NCBI GenBank assembly: GCA_963422645.2
Contig: CAXXVO010000009.1
Span: forward strand, 32,001-96,000
Length of the DNA: 64,000 bases
Direction: 5' to 3'
DNA from: Alphaproteobacteria bacterium
Lineage (GTDB): Bacteria; Pseudomonadota; Alphaproteobacteria; UBA828
Below are positions 10,913 to 18,516 of this stretch, piece by piece (positions within the stretch are counted from its first letter, which is position 1; each line of letters opens with the position of its first letter). The translations under genes and the position numbers were made by a program. The notes under the pieces are model-generated. The model was given only the letters and a program-made list of their open reading frames with translations, did not search any database and was not told the origin of the DNA.

Positions 10913-12724
10913 TTACGAAGGGGTTGGCAAGCGCCATATGGAACTTCTCGCGGGCGTCGTAGGCGGGCTTGGCCTGTTCATCGTCGGGATGTGGCTCCTG
11001 ACGGAGAACCTCAAGAAGCTCGCGAGCCGGCGGCTGCGCCAGATTGCGCATGGCTGGACCGGAAACCCGTTTGGACGCCCTGAACGCAAAAGGCAACCTT
11101 CGCCTTCGGTGCTGTGGTTGCCGGGTTTCGACGGGTCTGGACCGCCGCCTGGCGATCCCGAGATTGGGATTGAATGGCGAATGGTGATTTTGTCCTCGGT
11201 GACCAACACCTCCTTCACGATGAGCCGGACGATGCGCTGCCGTTCGGCGATGTCCAGGGTTTCGGCGGACGAGTGCAGCCGCGCCAGAAAGCCGGTCAGC
11301 GTCTCGGCGAGCCGGAGATAGGTCTCGCGATCCTTCGCCCGATCGACGGTGGATTGCAGTTCGCGATTCAGAGCCTGATCCTGACGACGGAGCTCGGACG
11401 TTCTGTCGCGCAGTTCATCGATTGTAATCAACTCCTCCTGATAGGCGTTGACCAGGCGGTCGATGCTTTTTCGGACCCGGATCAGACGGTGCCGCAGGTC
11501 GTTCTCGCGCTGCTGGTTTGGATCGGAAGCGCGGGCCGCCTGTAGTCGCCGGTCGATCTCGGCGCCGATCAGTGCTGGATCCTCGAGCAGGCGGACCACT
11601 TCGCCCCAGACGACGTCATCGAGCAAGTCCTGGCGCACCGGCCGACTGTCGCACACCGGTCCGTTGAGATGGCGCCAAGAGTCAGAACCCAGGCAGCGAT
11701 AATAGGAGATCTTGCGGGCACTCGTCTGGGCCGATGTGCGAGACAGCGCGTAGCCGCATTTGCCGCACGAGACCAGTCCCTGGAGCACGCTGGGCGTCTT
11801 CGTGCGACGCGGCGCGTGGATCTTGTTCATCTCCAGCCGCTCTTCGGCCAGGGCGAAGGTCTCTTCGCTGACGATCGCCGGCACCGGGATCTCGATCCAC
11901 TCCTCACGCGGTTTTTCGTGACCGCCGGTCGTGCCGCTGGCCACGCCGCGGCGCAGGCGCAGAGGACGTGTCACACATTTACGCGGCATCTGGCGGGTCT
12001 TGCCGAAACAGGCTTTCCCCTTGTACGCCGGATTGCGGAGCATCGCCCACACCGTCGAGCGTTCCCAGCGCGAGCGCCCGGTGGAGGTGGGTACCGCGCG
12101 CTCATTGAGCCTGCAGGTGATCGCGCCGATGCTCATGTGATCGCAGGTGTAGCAGCGGTAAACCTCGCGAACCACCGACGCCTGCGGCTCGACGATTTCG
12201 TAGAACGCATCGCTGTCCGGGGTTTTCTTGTGGTAGCGGTAGCCATAGGGCGCGCCGCCGAGGACGGCGATTTCGCCGCGTCGCGCCCGATGTCGCTTGC
12301 CGCGCCGGGAACGCTCCAGGATTTGCGCGCGCTCGTATTCCGCAATCATGCCCTGGAACTGGACGAGCAGATGATCTTCCGGGGTTTCCATCGACGGCGC
12401 TCTCAAGAACACGGTCTCGACGCCCTGACGGGCCAGCTCCTCGATGATCAGAACCTGGTAGGCATAGCGCCGGCTCATACGGTCCGGGGCATGGACCAGC
12501 ACCGTGTCGATGCGCCCTTCCGCGGCGAGATCCCTGACCCGCTCGAGCCCCGGGCGTTCGAGAACGGCGCCGGTATAGCCGTCATCTTCAATGATCATGT
12601 CGGGCGCGACGCTGTAACCGTGGTCCTCGGCGTAGGCGATCAGGGCCTCGGTCTGGCTCGCTATCGTGTTGTCATCTCTCTGCCGCTCGCCGGAGACCCG
12701 CGCGTAAATGGCTGCGATCTTCAT
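10913..12724 (-). CDS. Large serine recombinase (resolvase, recombinase, Zn-ribbon, coiled coil); reads through the element end
   Basis: IYARVS catalytic serine, DRMSR, GGAPYGY, NPAYKG, CGKC..YYRC..C; element-encoded part ends LLRSGR at about 11074, stop lies in flanking DNA. Confidence 0.92.
   Translation of the reverse strand: MKIAAIYARVSGERQRDDNTIASQTEALIAYAEDHGYSVAPDMIIEDDGYTGAVLERPGLERVRDLAAEGRIDTVLVHAPDRMSRRYAYQVLIIEELARQGVETVFLRAPSMETPEDHLLVQFQGMIAEYERAQILERSRRGKRHRARRGEIAVLGGAPYGYRYHKKTPDSDAFYEIVEPQASVVREVYRCYTCDHMSIGAITCRLNERAVPTSTGRSRWERSTVWAMLRNPAYKGKACFGKTRQMPRKCVTRPLRLRRGVASGTTGGHEKPREEWIEIPVPAIVSEETFALAEERLEMNKIHAPRRTKTPSVLQGLVSCGKCGYALSRTSAQTSARKISYYRCLGSDSWRHLNGPVCDSRPVRQDLLDDVVWGEVVRLLEDPALIGAEIDRRLQAARASDPNQQRENDLRHRLIRVRKSIDRLVNAYQEELITIDELRDRTSELRRQDQALNRELQSTVDRAKDRETYLRLAETLTGFLARLHSSAETLDIAERQRIVRLIVKEVLVTEDKITIRHSIPISGSPGGGPDPSKPGNHSTEGEGCLLRSGRPNGFPVQPCAIWRSRRLASFLRFSVRSHIPTMNRPSPPTTPARSSIWRLPTPS
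10938..11073 (+). pseudogene. 5' fragment of Na/Pi cotransporter family gene, truncated at the recombinase element end
   Basis: MELLAGVVGGLGLFIVGMWLLTENLKKLASRRLR...TGNPF resembles NptA-type N-terminus; similarity stops at the inverted repeat and the rest of the gene is absent from the window. Confidence 0.72.
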
Positions 12725-12922
12725 GGTCGTCTCCTATGTCCTGCGCTCGGACCGGGATTTGCCGTGAAACAGATTCTGGCGAGGGACGCGCGGTGACGCT
12801 CCAACCCCGAGGTCACGGCGTTGGCTGAGACCGCCAGGGTCGGCGCGGCGGAGACGAGCGGTGGACTTCCCCGATGTGGTCCGAAGCGGTCCCGCGTAGC
12901 CGGCTGACGAGATGCGGGCCGC

Positions 12923-14173
12923 TCAGGCGGCCTTGAGTTCCGCGCCTACGGGCTCGATGTAGCCGTAGCGGCGGAGCATGCGGATCCACCGAGGAGCGTT
13001 GCGCTTGACCATCAGAGCGTCGTAGTCGGCCGTGCGGTCGTAGTAGGGCCTGCCGGTCTTGAGCACCACATAGATGATGCGCAGCATCTTGTGAGCGCCG
13101 GCGACGATGGCGCGCTTGTAGCCGCGCCGGGCGGCGAGGGCGCGGTGATGAGCCTCGAACTGGCACCCCTTGGTTCGGGCCGCGCCGTGGGCACACTCGA
13201 CGAGGCAGGCGCGCAGGGTCTTGGAGCCCATGCGGGTGCGTGCGTTGCGGCGCTTGCCCCCGCTCTCGTTGTTGCCGGGGCAGAGCCCGGCCCAGGCGGC
13301 GAAGTGCTCCTTGGAGGCGAACACGCCGATGTCGGGGCCGATCTCGATGAGGATGGTCGAGGCGGCGGTGCGGTCGATGCCGGGGATGGTGGTCAGCAGA
13401 CGGAGCTGCTCCTCCCACGGTGTCATCTGCCCGTCGATCTTCCTGGTGTAGGACGCGATGCGCGCCTCAAGCGCGTCATGCTCCTCCAGCAGGTCGTTGA
13501 GCATGAAGCGGTCGTTGTCGCCCAGGCTCAGGGTGAGCGCCTCGCCGAGCCCCTCCAGCTTGTTCGCAACGTGGCTGGTGAGCGAGGCGAGGATGACCTC
13601 GCGCGCCGTCCCCTGCGCCAGGCCGTCGAGGATCTTCCGGCCGTTGACGCCGAAGACGTCGGAGAGGATGCCGCCGATGCGCGCACCGGCGCGGTCGATG
13701 ATCTTCTGCACGCGGTTGCGCACGGCGGAGCGCTGCCTGACCAGGACGCGGCGCTGGCGGCTCAGTGCGCGCAGCTCCCGGAACGGCTCAGGCGGAACGT
13801 GGGAAGGCGTGCAGAGCCCGAACTGGCACACGCAGGCCAGCCACACGCTGTCCGCCACGTCGGTCTTGCGCCCCTTCAACTGCTTCACCTGACGCGCATG
13901 CACCAGGATCGCCTCGAGCCCGGCCGCCTCCAGGGCCGCGAAGGGCGCCTGCCAGTAGACCCCGGTCCCTTCCATCACCGCAGCCTCGACGCCGTGACCG
14001 GTCAGCCACGCGACCATCTCCTCCAGACCGCTCGGCAGCGTGCCGAAGCAGCGCGTCTCCACCACCGGCTCACCCTCGCCCTCACAGAGGCGAACCGTCG
14101 CGGTGATCTCCATCTTGTGCACGTCCAGACCCGCCGCGCGCGGCCGGACGACGTGCAAGCCTTCCGTCTTCAT
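12923..14173 (-). CDS. IS110 family recombinase/transposase, copy 1
   Basis: DEDD motifs GLDVHK, MEGTG, KTDVAD; C-terminal IPGI, WAGLCPGNNESGG; AGGAGG upstream of ATG 14173. Confidence 0.95.
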   Translation of the reverse strand: MKTEGLHVVRPRAAGLDVHKMEITATVRLCEGEGEPVVETRCFGTLPSGLEEMVAWLTGHGVEAAVMEGTGVYWQAPFAALEAAGLEAILVHARQVKQLKGRKTDVADSVWLACVCQFGLCTPSHVPPEPFRELRALSRQRRVLVRQRSAVRNRVQKIIDRAGARIGGILSDVFGVNGRKILDGLAQGTAREVILASLTSHVANKLEGLGEALTLSLGDNDRFMLNDLLEEHDALEARIASYTRKIDGQMTPWEEQLRLLTTIPGIDRTAASTILIEIGPDIGVFASKEHFAAWAGLCPGNNESGGKRRNARTRMGSKTLRACLVECAHGAARTKGCQFEAHHRALAARRGYKRAIVAGAHKMLRIIYVVLKTGRPYYDRTADYDALMVKRNAPRWIRMLRRYGYIEPVGAELKAA

Positions 14174-14220
14174 CGCCTTCCTCCTCATTTGCGCTCTCGC
14201 CACGGCGGCGTACGATCACG

Positions 14221-14420
14221 CCGTGGCATCGCCACGGTGGAGGCGGGGACAGCGGTCGGAAGAACACGCATCCGACGAGCGGGTGCGGTGCAATTTGCCG
14301 CGCGTCCACGGCCACGGGCCGGGTACAATACGGGGTGCGGAGCCGGCCGCCGGAAGCAGTTTTGTCATCGGGAACTACGTCACCGATATAACGACGCTCA
14401 CACGTCCCCACCTCCGCCAA
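14221..14420 (-). ncRNA. Putative IS110 bridge RNA (repeated at about 15989-16188 and 17758-17957)
   Basis: Non-coding region upstream of the transposase; 15-bp closing stem 14404-14418/14236-14250; two internal hairpins flanked by target-like and donor-like segments. Confidence 0.68.
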
Positions 14421-14527
14421 TACCCATCCTGACACGGCAAATGGGTGCAAGCGCAAGGAAAACGTCAGCCGAACCGCTCCTGTTTCATGCCACGGGGTGG
14501 CTCAGAACCGCGGGGACCATGACTGTT

Positions 14528-16296
14528 TGCCGTGAAACAGATTCTGGCGAGGGACGCGCGGTGACGCTCCAACCCCGAGGTCACGGCGTTGGCTGAGACC
14601 GCCAGGGTCGGCGCGGCGGAGACGAGCGGTGGACTTCCCCGATGTGGTCCGAAGCGGTCCCGCGTAGCCGGCTGACGAGATGCGGGCCGCTCAGGCGGCC
14701 TTGAGTTCCGCGCCTACGGGCTCGATGTAGCCGTAGCGGCGGAGCATGCGGATCCACCGAGGAGCGTTGCGCTTGACCATCAGAGCGTCGTAGTCGGCCG
14801 TGCGGTCGTAGTAGGGCCTGCCGGTCTTGAGCACCACATAGATGATGCGCAGCATCTTGTGAGCGCCGGCGACGATGGCGCGCTTGTAGCCGCGCCGGGC
14901 GGCGAGGGCGCGGTGATGAGCCTCGAACTGGCACCCCTTGGTTCGGGCCGCGCCGTGGGCACACTCGACGAGGCAGGCGCGCAGGGTCTTGGAGCCCATG
15001 CGGGTGCGTGCGTTGCGGCGCTTGCCCCCGCTCTCGTTGTTGCCGGGGCAGAGCCCGGCCCAGGCGGCGAAGTGCTCCTTGGAGGCGAACACGCCGATGT
15101 CGGGGCCGATCTCGATGAGGATGGTCGAGGCGGCGGTGCGGTCGATGCCGGGGATGGTGGTCAGCAGACGGAGCTGCTCCTCCCACGGTGTCATCTGCCC
15201 GTCGATCTTCCTGGTGTAGGACGCGATGCGCGCCTCAAGCGCGTCATGCTCCTCCAGCAGGTCGTTGAGCATGAAGCGGTCGTTGTCGCCCAGGCTCAGG
15301 GTGAGCGCCTCGCCGAGCCCCTCCAGCTTGTTCGCAACGTGGCTGGTGAGCGAGGCGAGGATGACCTCGCGCGCCGTCCCCTGCGCCAGGCCGTCGAGGA
15401 TCTTCCGGCCGTTGACGCCGAAGACGTCGGAGAGGATGCCGCCGATGCGCGCACCGGCGCGGTCGATGATCTTCTGCACGCGGTTGCGCACGGCGGAGCG
15501 CTGCCTGACCAGGACGCGGCGCTGGCGGCTCAGTGCGCGCAGCTCCCGGAACGGCTCAGGCGGAACGTGGGAAGGCGTGCAGAGCCCGAACTGGCACACG
15601 CAGGCCAGCCACACGCTGTCCGCCACGTCGGTCTTGCGCCCCTTCAACTGCTTCACCTGACGCGCATGCACCAGGATCGCCTCGAGCCCGGCCGCCTCCA
15701 GGGCCGCGAAGGGCGCCTGCCAGTAGACCCCGGTCCCTTCCATCACCGCAGCCTCGACGCCGTGACCGGTCAGCCACGCGACCATCTCCTCCAGACCGCT
15801 CGGCAGCGTGCCGAAGCAGCGCGTCTCCACCACCGGCTCACCCTCGCCCTCACAGAGGCGAACCGTCGCGGTGATCTCCATCTTGTGCACGTCCAGACCC
15901 GCCGCGCGCGGCCGGACGACGTGCAAGCCTTCCGTCTTCATCGCCTTCCTCCTCATTTGCGCTCTCGCCACGGCGGCGTACGATCACGCCGTGGCATCGC
16001 CACGGTGGAGGCGGGGACAGCGGTCGGAAGAACACGCATCCGACGAGCGGGTGCGGTGCAATTTGCCGCGCGTCCACGGCCACGGGCCGGGTACAATACG
16101 GGGTGCGGAGCCGGCCGCCGGAAGCAGTTTTGTCATCGGGAACTACGTCACCGATATAACGACGCTCACACGTCCCCACCTCCGCCAATACCCATCCTGA
16201 CACGGCAAATGGGTGCAAGCGCAAGGAAAACGTCAGCCGAACCGCTCCTGTTTCATGCCACGGGGTGGCTCAGAACCGCGGGGACCATGACTGTTT
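14528..16296 (-). mobile_element. IS110 family element, copy 2 (1769 bp, one extra T at junction)
   Basis: ORF translations identical to copy 1; directly abuts copies 1 and 3. Confidence 0.92.
14691..15941 (-). CDS. IS110 family recombinase/transposase, copy 2
   Basis: Protein identical to copy 1. Confidence 0.95.
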   Translation of the reverse strand: MKTEGLHVVRPRAAGLDVHKMEITATVRLCEGEGEPVVETRCFGTLPSGLEEMVAWLTGHGVEAAVMEGTGVYWQAPFAALEAAGLEAILVHARQVKQLKGRKTDVADSVWLACVCQFGLCTPSHVPPEPFRELRALSRQRRVLVRQRSAVRNRVQKIIDRAGARIGGILSDVFGVNGRKILDGLAQGTAREVILASLTSHVANKLEGLGEALTLSLGDNDRFMLNDLLEEHDALEARIASYTRKIDGQMTPWEEQLRLLTTIPGIDRTAASTILIEIGPDIGVFASKEHFAAWAGLCPGNNESGGKRRNARTRMGSKTLRACLVECAHGAARTKGCQFEAHHRALAARRGYKRAIVAGAHKMLRIIYVVLKTGRPYYDRTADYDALMVKRNAPRWIRMLRRYGYIEPVGAELKAA

Positions 16297-18064
16297 TGCC
16301 GTGAAACAGATTCTGGCGAGGGACGCGCGGTGACGCTCCAACCCCGAGGTCACGGCGTTGGCTGAGACCGCCAGGGTCGGCGCGGCGGAGACGAGCGGTG
16401 GACTTCCCCGATGTGGTCCGAAGCGGTCCCGCGTAGCCGGCTGACGAGATGCGGGCCGCTCAGGCGGCCTTGAGTTCCGCGCCTACGGGCTCGATGTAGC
16501 CGTAGCGGCGGAGCATGCGGATCCACCGAGGAGCGTTGCGCTTGACCATCAGAGCGTCGTAGTCGGCCGTGCGGTCGTAGTAGGGCCTGCCGGTCTTGAG
16601 CACCACATAGATGATGCGCAGCATCTTGTGAGCGCCGGCGACGATGGCGCGCTTGTAGCCGCGCCGGGCGGCGAGGGCGCGGTGATGAGCCTCGAACTGG
16701 CACCCCTTGGTTCGGGCCGCGCCGTGGGCACACTCGACGAGGCAGGCGCGCAGGGTCTTGGAGCCCATGCGGGTGCGTGCGTTGCGGCGCTTGCCCCCGC
16801 TCTCGTTGTTGCCGGGGCAGAGCCCGGCCCAGGCGGCGAAGTGCTCCTTGGAGGCGAACACGCCGATGTCGGGGCCGATCTCGATGAGGATGGTCGAGGC
16901 GGCGGTGCGGTCGATGCCGGGGATGGTGGTCAGCAGACGGAGCTGCTCCTCCCACGGTGTCATCTGCCCGTCGATCTTCCTGGTGTAGGACGCGATGCGC
17001 GCCTCAAGCGCGTCATGCTCCTCCAGCAGGTCGTTGAGCATGAAGCGGTCGTTGTCGCCCAGGCTCAGGGTGAGCGCCTCGCCGAGCCCCTCCAGCTTGT
17101 TCGCAACGTGGCTGGTGAGCGAGGCGAGGATGACCTCGCGCGCCGTCCCCTGCGCCAGGCCGTCGAGGATCTTCCGGCCGTTGACGCCGAAGACGTCGGA
17201 GAGGATGCCGCCGATGCGCGCACCGGCGCGGTCGATGATCTTCTGCACGCGGTTGCGCACGGCGGAGCGCTGCCTGACCAGGACGCGGCGCTGGCGGCTC
17301 AGTGCGCGCAGCTCCCGGAACGGCTCAGGCGGAACGTGGGAAGGCGTGCAGAGCCCGAACTGGCACACGCAGGCCAGCCACACGCTGTCCGCCACGTCGG
17401 TCTTGCGCCCCTTCAACTGCTTCACCTGACGCGCATGCACCAGGATCGCCTCGAGCCCGGCCGCCTCCAGGGCCGCGAAGGGCGCCTGCCAGTAGACCCC
17501 GGTCCCTTCCATCACCGCAGCCTCGACGCCGTGACCGGTCAGCCACGCGACCATCTCCTCCAGACCGCTCGGCAGCGTGCCGAAGCAGCGCGTCTCCACC
17601 ACCGGCTCACCCTCGCCCTCACAGAGGCGAACCGTCGCGGTGATCTCCATCTTGTGCACGTCCAGACCCGCCGCGCGCGGCCGGACGACGTGCAAGCCTT
17701 CCGTCTTCATCGCCTTCCTCCTCATTTGCGCTCTCGCCACGGCGGCGTACGATCACGCCGTGGCATCGCCACGGTGGAGGCGGGGACAGCGGTCGGAAGA
17801 ACACGCATCCGACGAGCGGGTGCGGTGCAATTTGCCGCGCGTCCACGGCCACGGGCCGGGTACAATACGGGGTGCGGAGCCGGCCGCCGGAAGCAGTTTT
17901 GTCATCGGGAACTACGTCACCGATATAACGACGCTCACACGTCCCCACCTCCGCCAATACCCATCCTGACACGGCAAATGGGTGCAAGCGCAAGGAAAAC
18001 GTCAGCCGAACCGCTCCTGTTTCATGCCACGGGGTGGCTCAGAACCGCGGGGACCATGACTGTT
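16297..18064 (-). mobile_element. IS110 family element, copy 3 (1768 bp)
   Basis: Same unit; right junction gactgTTTTgtgagt. Confidence 0.92.
16460..17710 (-). CDS. IS110 family recombinase/transposase, copy 3
   Basis: Protein identical to copy 1. Confidence 0.95.
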   Translation of the reverse strand: MKTEGLHVVRPRAAGLDVHKMEITATVRLCEGEGEPVVETRCFGTLPSGLEEMVAWLTGHGVEAAVMEGTGVYWQAPFAALEAAGLEAILVHARQVKQLKGRKTDVADSVWLACVCQFGLCTPSHVPPEPFRELRALSRQRRVLVRQRSAVRNRVQKIIDRAGARIGGILSDVFGVNGRKILDGLAQGTAREVILASLTSHVANKLEGLGEALTLSLGDNDRFMLNDLLEEHDALEARIASYTRKIDGQMTPWEEQLRLLTTIPGIDRTAASTILIEIGPDIGVFASKEHFAAWAGLCPGNNESGGKRRNARTRMGSKTLRACLVECAHGAARTKGCQFEAHHRALAARRGYKRAIVAGAHKMLRIIYVVLKTGRPYYDRTADYDALMVKRNAPRWIRMLRRYGYIEPVGAELKAA

Positions 18065-18175
18065 TTGTGAGTTTGATCGGGCACCAGGATCGCGTAGGCG
18101 TTGTGGAGTTTGGCGTCGAGCAGACGATCGAAGGCATAAGCGAGGTGAACCGTGGGCCGAGCGCCCAAGCGACGT

Positions 18176-18505
18176 TCAGCCATGCCGATCCGCGTCCGAT
18201 AAAAAGCGTCTCAGCGCCCGCGCGACGATCTCCCCGATGGAGTGGCCGCTGCTCCTGGCGTGGGCTCGCAAGGTCTCCGCCAGAGTGCCTGGAATCTTGA
18301 TGGTGATCGGGATCAGCTCTTCGGTCGGCTCGGCCGGCTGGCCCATGGCGCGCGCGTCCTGGACGTAGCGATAGGACTGACGCTGCGACAGCCCGAAGCG
18401 CTGCGACAGCCGTGCCACGGCTTCGCTCGCCGTGGCGCCCTGGGCGAGCAGCGTGTAGGCGGCATTGAGCCGCTCGACCTTCTGGGATCTTGTTGACCGG
18501 ATCAT
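18176..18505 (-). CDS. Small DNA-binding protein (N-terminal HTH-like, C-terminal ribbon-helix-helix-like)
   Basis: 109 aa; LSQRFGLSQRQSYRYV and ITIKIPGTLAETLRAHA..SIGEIVARALRRFL; first gene of the recombinase element. Confidence 0.68.
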   Translation of the reverse strand: MIRSTRSQKVERLNAAYTLLAQGATASEAVARLSQRFGLSQRQSYRYVQDARAMGQPAEPTEELIPITIKIPGTLAETLRAHARSSGHSIGEIVARALRRFLSDADRHG

Positions 18506-18516
18506 TTGCCATAAGA

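Follow-up and report, generated by a model that had tools for sequence, protein, structure and literature searches.

A probable bridge RNA of variant architecture in a multicopy IS110-family insertion sequence from an alphaproteobacterium

This study concerns positions 14,221 to 14,420, read on the minus strand, of a 64,000-nucleotide (nt) stretch of alphaproteobacterial DNA (contig CAXXVO010000009.1; hereafter the window). The region lies in the non-coding upstream end of copy three in a tandem array of three, the unit being an IS110-family insertion sequence (IS), and it probably encodes the bridge RNA of that element, whose recombinase is a 416-residue protein of the DEDD/Tnp kind. A preliminary description, made from the window alone, had proposed four guide segments arranged in the order known from IS621. 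Two of the four, the left target guide and the left donor guide, are real, judged by their covariation with the DNA that they would read; the other two are not supported as proposed. The element is a bridge-RNA system with a variant architecture, informative and not fundamentally new: features of IS110 bridge RNAs were found wherever they could be examined, while the guide order and the CT core of IS621 were not, which makes this a variant of a known system.

Bridge recombinases are under development as programmable genome-rearrangement tools. To our knowledge, mechanistic understanding of them comes almost entirely from IS621-like elements with a CT core.

An IS110-family element in 48 copies

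On the minus strand, from about position 18063 to 12759, the window holds three copies of the element, head to tail and 100% identical, whose starts lie 1,768 and 1,769 base pairs (bp) apart. Each is laid out as about 355 nt of upstream non-coding sequence, an open reading frame (ORF) of 416 codons and about 165 nt downstream. The encoded protein carries PF01548 (E = 1.9e-23) and PF02371 (E = 4.6e-21), scores 270 bits against NF033542 ('IS110 family RNA-guided transposase'; cut-off 140) and is distantly related to the solved recombinases of IS621 (8wt6, E = 6.3e-16) and ISCro4 (E = 3e-15), in agreement with its earlier assignment to the RNA-guided recombinases of this family. The genome has 48 copies in total, 47 of them identical. 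They occupy 37 loci, and the flanks are unique at 33 of these. A homologue search gave 6,986 recombinase relatives at E <= 1e-20 and a metagenome scan for relatives gave 10 loci. A search of five relatives' genomes for further copies gave no new usable site, and a phylum-wide protein search found relatives in five of 400 other genomes, 40-44% identical and all at contig ends, which were excluded from the analysis.

The left-hand guides follow the DNA that they would read

The six strings on which the preliminary description was built all lie on the minus strand where it had placed them: the stem arms GGCGGAGGTGGGGAC (14418-14404) and GTCCCCGCCTCCACC (14250-14236), the left-hand segments ATGACAAAA (14368-14360) and CGCGGCAAA (14302-14294), and the right-hand segments CGTATT (14332-14327) and CGTGTT (14268-14263). 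The left-hand segments are as follows.

14360..14368, minus: left target guide AUGACAAAA; effective part (G)ACAAAA at 14366-14360, core AA at 14362-14361; A14360 would read the first base past the exchange point
14294..14302, minus: left donor guide CGCGGCAAA; effective part CGGCAAA at 14300-14294, core AA at 14296-14295; its third A would likewise read the first base past the core

Within the 1,768-nt unit the string GACAAAA has a single occurrence. When 15 upstream ends are aligned, bases 14368-14360 form a hypervariable block between the invariant neighbours GUUCCCG and CUGCUUCC. The left flanks of all 33 unique sites end in an ACAAAA-type sequence, with A in 29, C in 33, A in 32 and A in 33, 33 and 33 at positions -6 to -1; position -7 is G in 17 of the 33, and positions further out are uninformative. 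Across 20 guide variants, a register-free test gave a guide/left-flank match of at least 7 of 8 in 21 of 37 cognate pairs, these including the mis-anchored or truncated rows L053, L090 and L092, against 22 of 1,258 non-cognate pairs. Guides and left flanks pair up in the element of the window and in its relatives as listed here.

Element of the window: guide AUGACAAAA, left flank GACAAAA
L036: guide GGCAAAAAA, left flank TGCAAAAAA
L038: guide AGAUCUAAA, left flank CATCTAAA
L045: guide AGAUAUAAA, left flank CATATAAA
L071: guide GACAAAAAA, left flank GACAAAAAA
L048: guide ACACCAAA, left flank CACCAAA
L050: guide AACGCAAA, left flank GACGCAAA or ACGCAAA
L056: guide ACGCUAAA, left flank CGCTAAA
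L057: guide UUGAGAAA, left flank G[G/T]TGAGAAA
L058: guide ACCACAAA, left flank CCACAAA
L062: guide UGUUGAAA, left flank CGTTGAAA or GTTGAAA
L089: guide AGACUAAA, left flank GGACTAAA or GACTAAA
L088: guide AGUAUAAU, left flank GTATAAT

On these comparative grounds the left target guide is real: it covaries with the left flank and explains the landing sites. The nine-base guide first put forward holds in its GACAAAA part (ACAAAA at 29-33 of 33 flanks, together with the covariation) but not in its first two bases, AU, since the corresponding target positions -9 and -8 are A in only 2 and T in only 4 of the 33 sites; in the fold of the isolated domain this AU pairs with the AU that ends the opposite strand. 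Because the AU does not read the target and the G at -7 is not enriched (counts below), the effective guide is (G)ACAAAA. It corresponds to the left half of the target plus the AA core, and would pair with the bottom strand. The mismatch tolerance claimed earlier for the system holds at the distal left positions.

The left donor guide behaves in the same manner. The string CGGCAAA is also found once in the unit, and it equals the right end CACGGCAA followed by the initial A of the left end. Among relatives, block and right end vary in step: where the block is CGGCAAA, CAGCAAA, CAACAAA or CAGUAAA, the right end is CACGGCAA, CACAGCAA, CACAACAA or CTCAGTAA, respectively. By this covariation the proposed left donor guide, too, is real, and its single-stranded block would represent the element's right end with the AA core.

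Insertion without duplication at an AA core

The element inserts without duplication at (G)ACAAA^[A>G]; its core is AA, and the strands are exchanged following the second A of the conserved AAA. The target module of the window occurs five times in the genome, three times occupied (by one, two and three IS copies) and twice empty. Both empty paralogs read ...CTCACAAAA/TCCCGGTCC (with TCCCGG; a slash marks the junction), with four A, or in longer form ...CAAACTCACAAAA/TCCCGGTCCGAGCG, and so match the empty site that had been reconstructed beforehand (CTCACAAAA/TCCCGG, four A). Set against the occupied CTCACAAAA/CAGTC...CACGGCAAA/TCCCGG, the empty site reveals no target duplication, and the same is true of the empty GACAAAGCATAT and the occupied GACAAAA/IS/...CACGGCAAGCATAT. 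The register follows from the orthologous empty site GTTCGACAAAGCATAT, whose occupied counterpart reads GACAAAA/IS...CACGGCAA/GCATAT and which places the exchange after the second A. Read in genome G413, this empty site is GTTCGACAAAGCATATATG, as compared with GTTCGACAAAA/IS x2/...CACGGCAAGCATATATG at the occupied site of the window's genome, and a second site fits the exchange point in length. The third base at the right junction is other than A in 9 of the 33 sites and the left junction always has the full A-run, which is likewise the case in two other genomes. With the exchange after the second A, both left-hand guides overrun the core by one base, namely their final A. The preliminary description had correctly replaced the CT core by AA, but its register was one base off.

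After CACGGC, the right flanks of the 33 sites have A in 33, A in 32, then A in 24, G in 8 and T in 1, then a weak T (14 of 33), then nothing. When the ACAAA sites of the genome are sorted by the first base after the exchange point, the occupied fraction is 19/356 for A, 8/578 for G, 1/597 for T and 0/416 for C. The observed target is (G)ACAAA-[A>G] followed by a weak T, and not the ATGACAA-AA-TACG that had been predicted; of the TACG derived from the proposed right target guide, only the first T is enriched (14/33), the remaining positions standing at 8/33 for A, 13/33 for C and 9/33 for G.

Structure of the predicted RNA

The RNA would have a body of about 183 nt closed by one long stem, P1. 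Apart from the two left-hand guides given above, its parts are the following.

14236..14418, minus: bridge RNA body, 183 nt, enclosed by P1 (5' arm 14418-14404, 3' arm 14250-14236), from folds and alignment
14395..14399, minus: P2 5' strand GAGCG; its partner is CUGCU(U) at 14359-14354
14386..14394, minus: 5' strand of the target-binding loop, UCGUUAUAU; its terminal AU can extend P3; the position of the candidate right target guide in relatives
14369..14385, minus: segment between the loop 5' strand and the left target guide, from fold and alignment
14354..14359, minus: P2 3' strand CUGCUU, directly 3' of the left target guide
14325..14332, minus: J1, CGUAUU plus a conserved GU; single-stranded, 5' of hairpin P5
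14304..14326, minus: hairpin P5, almost invariant (GU.CCCGGCC...GGCC.GUGGAC)
14267..14287, minus: hairpin P7 (CGCACCCG...CGGAUGCG), with compensatory variants in relatives read by eye from alignment rows
14260..14268, minus: J3, CGUGUU; UGUU at 14266-14263 can pair with the donor AACA; a plausible candidate guide

The extra closing stem of the preliminary description is confirmed: P1 is present in the minimum free energy folds, and among 23 aligned relatives its helices are 90.0% and 88.7% paired, with changes on both sides in 6 of 10 pairs. For the RNAalifold structure without helix P6, 95.1% of cells are paired in the same 23 sequences, as against 88.2% in column shuffles (0 of 500 reach the observed value) and 40-55% when the structure is slid; both sides have changed in 12 pairs. 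Helix P2 is 97.3% paired and covaries, from A:U to G:C in eight sequences and from G:C to U:A or A:U in ten. P2 closes an internal loop with P3 as its distal hairpin, and the left target guide makes up the 3' strand of that loop. The donor part consists of J1, P5, the left donor guide, P7 and J3, with the short helices P4 and P4' closing a three-way junction. RNAalifold had offered P6 (columns 150-153 with 185-188), which was dropped in favour of P7 because the two have a 3' strand in common and P7 shows compensatory variants by eye; P7 itself was left out of the formal pair count, since MAFFT misaligns it between clades. Single-sequence fold z-scores are weak evidence: the 336-nt end scores -0.72, the 183-nt RNA -2.03 and the 50-nt target domain -0.82. 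An Rfam search of 12700-18300 at E <= 1 returned only three sub-threshold matches, all in the recombinase ORFs, to the Pseudomonas small RNA P10 (13086-13157, 14854-14925 and 16623-16694, minus; 22.1 bits against a gathering score of 37), and these were taken as chance.

Other parts of the upstream end are also conserved or variable in their own right. A leader of about 110 nt (14419-14526, minus) lies 5' of the bridge RNA and is conserved in relatives, its motif CCACCCCGUGGCAUGAAAC being kept down to relatives of 42% identity and CUGCCGUG(G/U)CAGG being conserved too. Within it, TTTGCCGTG (14441-14433), which lies 86 nt inside the left end, repeats 9 nt of the right end CACGGCAAA in reverse complement; in L047 this leader repeat reads TGCTGTG though the right end is still CACGGCAA. 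Between the bridge RNA and the ribosome-binding site lies a hairpin-like segment of 33-44 nt (14190-14233, minus) with the direct repeat CCGTGGCGA on both sides, which is missing in one copy of the same genome (C16:23521-25259), two relatives (L036, L070) and two RNA-library contigs. Finally, a hexamer at 14288-14293 (UUGCAC or UCGAAC) and J3 at 14263-14266 (UGUU or UGUC) change together in close relatives (L031, L036, L038 and others) without being complementary, which may reflect a tertiary or protein-mediated coupling.

Right-hand recognition

The right target guide had been placed at CGUAUU, after the left target guide and a hairpin, as in IS621. With the covarying P2 directly 3' of the left target guide, however, CGUAUU falls outside that loop, and the four variable bases of J1 (UAUU, UACU, UAAU, UACC, CAAU, GACC, GAGU, GACU and UAUA) show by eye no complementarity to the right flanks of the elements that carry them. 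It is the 5' strand of the P2 loop that, in several lineages, is complementary to the right flank. In a fixed register, the six nt 5' of a 3-nt spacer were set against the final A of the junction A-run and 5 nt of right flank; a score of 5 of 6 or more came from 4 of the 19 strand variants but from only 2.3% of 822 non-cognate pairs. The best-matching lineages are these.

L055 lineage: CCGCAU with ATGCGG, 6/6 (with ATCCGG, 5/6)
L091 and L093: GAAGGU with ACCTTC, 6/6
L089: UGCGGU with ACCGCC, 5/6
L041 lineage (protein 91% identical to that of the window): UCCGUU with ACCGGA, 5/6
L058, L056 and L038: 4/6

Since this complementarity recurs in several lineages, the right target guide of the family would appear to lie 5' of the left one, on the loop strand represented here by UCGUUAU, giving the order right target guide, hairpin, left target guide; the IS621 order claimed earlier is not supported, because P2 makes the left target guide the 3' part of the loop and the right-flank match is on the 5' strand. 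The loop strand of the element under study has itself no right-flank match, so that targeting would rest on the left half of about 6-7 nt and the core, a 'half-match'. We infer that this lineage has no working recognition of the right half apart from A/G and a weak T and that its targeting is effectively left-half only, a mode that fits the expansion to 48 copies.

For the right half of the donor there are two candidate readers, UGUU in J3 (14266-14263), which would pair with AACA, and UAUUGU in J1 plus its GU (14330-14325), which would pair with ACAGT(A) through one U.G. The G and the U that face the conserved donor A-C are kept in 27/28 and 26/28 cases in J1 and in 16/17 and 14/17 in J3. By permutation, J1 does not covary with the variable donor positions, the second and third bases of the left end (p = 0.86-0.91), nor does the first base of J3 with the second base of the left end (5/17 against 2.9 expected, p = 0.06). 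The relative L088 favours J3: its DNA has T for the third A, its J3 has A (4/4 pairs) and its J1 keeps U. In L048, L050 and L079, J3 also has A there and the DNA is unchanged. The right donor guide CGUGUU of the preliminary description, though plausible, makes four contiguous pairs (UGUU/AACA) in this element, no more than chance could give, and is not backed by covariation at its one variable position, and the reservation made at the time, that right-hand matches could be due to chance, was justified.

Tandem arrays

The array of the window has the following features.

12759..18063, minus: three-copy IS110-family array (unit 1,768/1,769 bp), from sequence and empty paralogs
18063/18062, minus: array left junction ...CTCACAAAA/CAGTC
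16297-16294 (A-run), minus: internal junction CACGGC-AAAA-CAGTC
14528-14526 (A-run), minus: internal junction CACGGC-AAA-CAGTC
12759/12757, minus: array right junction CACGGCAA(A)/TCCCGG
14174..14526, minus: upstream non-coding end of copy 3 (about 353-357 nt), comprising the conserved leader of about 110 nt, the bridge RNA and the variable hairpin segment
12923..14173, minus: recombinase gene of copy 3, 416 residues, ATG at 14173 behind GAGGAGGA, stop included; DEDD_Tnp_IS110 and Transposase_20; copies 2 and 1 have identical genes 1,768 and 3,537 bases higher

Tandem arrays occur at six loci, with 2, 2, 2, 3, 3 and 5 copies (on C5, C8 at two loci, C10, C11 and C16), and their 11 internal junctions have AAA in six cases and AAAA in five. 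A circle that re-inserted at a resident junction would yield AAA, and re-insertion beside resident copies would account for the arrays. Junctions of right end to left end are seen elsewhere as well: in L082, at whose left junction a family member's left end directly adjoins the right end of a different one (L079 type); downstream of L094, on a metagenome contig; and, as a fragment, in L051, whose right junction has a duplicated 15-nt piece of right end beside the intact right end. One RNA-library contig also runs from right end into left end. Separately, the right flank of C8:774879 and the left flank of C21:59024 have about 24 nt in common, inverted, which may be repeated sequence or a rearrangement between IS copies.

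Weighing the evidence

Several observations weigh against the reading developed here. A scan of 14150-14720 for sigma-70 promoters and terminators found 0 sites, the junction included. Contigs of three RNA libraries (X15, X16 and X18) carry relatives of 90-97% identity with upstream end and ORF, which indicates presence only, as such contigs carry neither strand nor ends and the libraries may contain DNA. The consensus structure was derived from the same alignment in which its pairs were counted. Sites of the same lineage are not independent, because they are often copies of one repetitive extragenic palindrome (REP)-like repeat. Occupied sites have no excess of G at -7 (15/32) over free ACAAA[AG] sites (362/907). 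At its second base the left donor guide is always mismatched (G/A), and L070 and L086 each show one mismatch between it and the right end. On the right-hand side, 12 of the 19 strand variants reach at most 3 of 6, that of the window included (1-2 of 6 at the L031-L033 sites); a free-register test gave only +0.78 over the null, with 13 of 19 variants above it; and the 33 right flanks of the genome averaged 2.91 in free register against a null of 2.84. Lastly, tandem junctions with four A (5 of 11) are not foreseen from the exchange register.

It is conceivable that the recombinase protein or the DNA shape of the A-tract selects ACAAAA, the RNA-like matches being coincidental or serving only to regulate expression of the recombinase. 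The specificity in this genome is indeed only about 6 nt and lies within an A-run, and the fold z-scores are weak; yet the guide block changes with the left flank in 20 variants, the donor-guide block changes with the right end, the guide block is hypervariable between invariant neighbours and RNA guidance has been demonstrated experimentally for the IS110 family in published papers, which together make this explanation very improbable. An IS621-like layout of the RNA, with left target guide, hairpin and CGUAUU (14332-14327) followed by left donor guide, hairpin and CGUGUU (14268-14263), has more in its favour. In the element of the window AUU can pair with the target AAT, where T is the commonest base (14/33), and the order of left donor guide, hairpin and J3 is that of IS621; the pairing of UGUU with AACA, the conservation of the J3 bases that face the first C (16/17) and the A (14/17) of the left end, and the paired change in L088, read by eye, are in keeping with its donor half. 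We nevertheless consider this layout unlikely, for the covarying P2 closes a loop directly 3' of the left target guide and leaves CGUAUU outside, the variable bases of J1 do not match their own right flanks and the 5' strand of the loop does, J3 carries a C facing the core A in the L031/L036/L038 group, and its variable base does not track the donor.

The tandem copies and the differences in junction A-runs might, in turn, have arisen in assembly, as artefacts of a multicopy repeat. All but one of the 48 copies are identical, the genome is in 23 contigs with 8.48% contamination, and homopolymer lengths of three or four A are prone to error; raw DNA reads (X21, about 1/100 sampled) do not cover the organism and hence provide no test of the arrays. 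Against this, the arrays stand at six loci with unique flanks, right-end-to-left-end junctions recur in unrelated assemblies (L082, L094, L051), and tandem IS110 modules are known from preprints. An artefact of this kind is distinctly unlikely and would, in any case, leave the bridge-RNA reading untouched.

Surroundings of the insertion sites

The target of the window array sits between an ORF of 157 residues without a Pfam match and the gene of a large serine recombinase of 603 residues.

10913..12724, minus: large serine recombinase gene beside the target site; part of the target's host module and not of the IS

The module (10913-12724 and 18039-18512 of the window, minus) shares about 0.6 kb to the left and about 1.7 kb to the right of the site, and its further places in the same genome are C8:633641-634098, C6:200369-200826, C19 and C8:727473. 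A REP-like repeat family is present at about 50 places in the genome (for example C18:169481, C5, C3 and C15) and reads ...GGCCGGCTGCCGTGAGCGACAA[A/G]...AGAGCGTTTCCG...CGGAAACGCTCTAG; three of its members are occupied by the IS at GACAAAA, and IS relatives of the L041 and L055 lineages likewise lie in REP-like repeats of their own hosts.

Comparison with known systems

The element resembles IS621 (Durrant et al. 2024, PMC11208160; Hiraizumi et al. 2024, PMC11208158) in its DEDD and Tnp recombinase, in an RNA encoded in the long upstream end, in left-hand guides that run in the top-strand sense and include the core, in a separate block that reads the element's own right end, in duplication-free insertion at a core common to target and donor, and in a right-hand recognition that is short. 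It differs in having AA and not CT as the core, in left-hand guides that both extend one base past it, in one long stem around the whole RNA, in a left target guide on the 3' strand of the loop with the strand complementary to the right flank 5' of it, and in a donor part built as a three-way junction (P4', P5, P7) instead of a simple internal loop. The recombinase has 416 residues, whereas that of IS621 has 328, and the two match at only E = 6e-16.

In other respects the RNA recalls the seekRNAs of IS1111-type elements (PMC11187229), in which a segment complementary to the top strand likewise precedes one complementary to the bottom strand, an order that in our case is drawn from relatives and P2, and both segments lie in a compact domain of about 60 nt. 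IS1111-type elements, however, have their non-coding region downstream of the transposase gene and here it is upstream; their transposases have 330-350 residues as against 416; and they carry subterminal inverted repeats of 7-17 bp, where the element under study has its 9-nt inverted copy 86 nt inside the left end. The same paper gives 395-455 residues for the subgroup that contains IS110 itself. With regard to guide order, Siddiquee et al. (PMC11187229) report right before left in IS1111-type seekRNAs and the opposite in ISEc21, and Durrant et al. (PMC11208160) place the left target guide of IS621 before the right one and report diverse bridge-RNA structures among IS110 subfamilies. In the literature covered, we found no description of a right-before-left order of target guides in an upstream-encoded bridge RNA, although one may be contained in figures or supplements (for example PMC11208160 Fig. 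6d: ISPpu10, ISAar29, ISHne5).

Half-match recombination and tandem IS110 modules have been described (10.64898/2026.08.31.748434, 10.64898/2026.08.14.744561, 10.1101/2025.10.25.684509). As in those preprints, one arm and the core are matched, modules are duplicated head to tail, and copy-and-paste behaviour is judged from many identical copies. Their half-match events are off-target or expansion events beside a full-match target, whereas all 33 natural sites examined here look like matches to the left half only, and the junction A-runs here are of two lengths.

Conclusions

Taken as a whole, the observations suggest, tentatively and as something close to but short of an even chance, a branch of IS110 elements with long transposases and upstream-encoded RNAs, in which a permuted target loop is held within one closing stem, the core is AA and the guides extend one base past it; the lineage studied would have given up right-half recognition and would insert at any (G)ACAAA[A/G], leading to a burst of 48 copies and to arrays of up to five. 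Whatever becomes of that picture, the element supplies a natural data set for a distant IS110 branch, with 33 sites in one genome, empty paralogous and orthologous sites and about 20 guide variants. This material settles the left-hand guides, the AA core and the point of exchange, and it suggests that the target loop is arranged differently. Should loop permutation and left-half-only targeting not be borne out, this would be one more IS110 element with a readable bridge RNA; if they are, the design space of such systems would be wider, and the case would show how weak recognition of the right half leads to genome-wide spread and tandem amplification.

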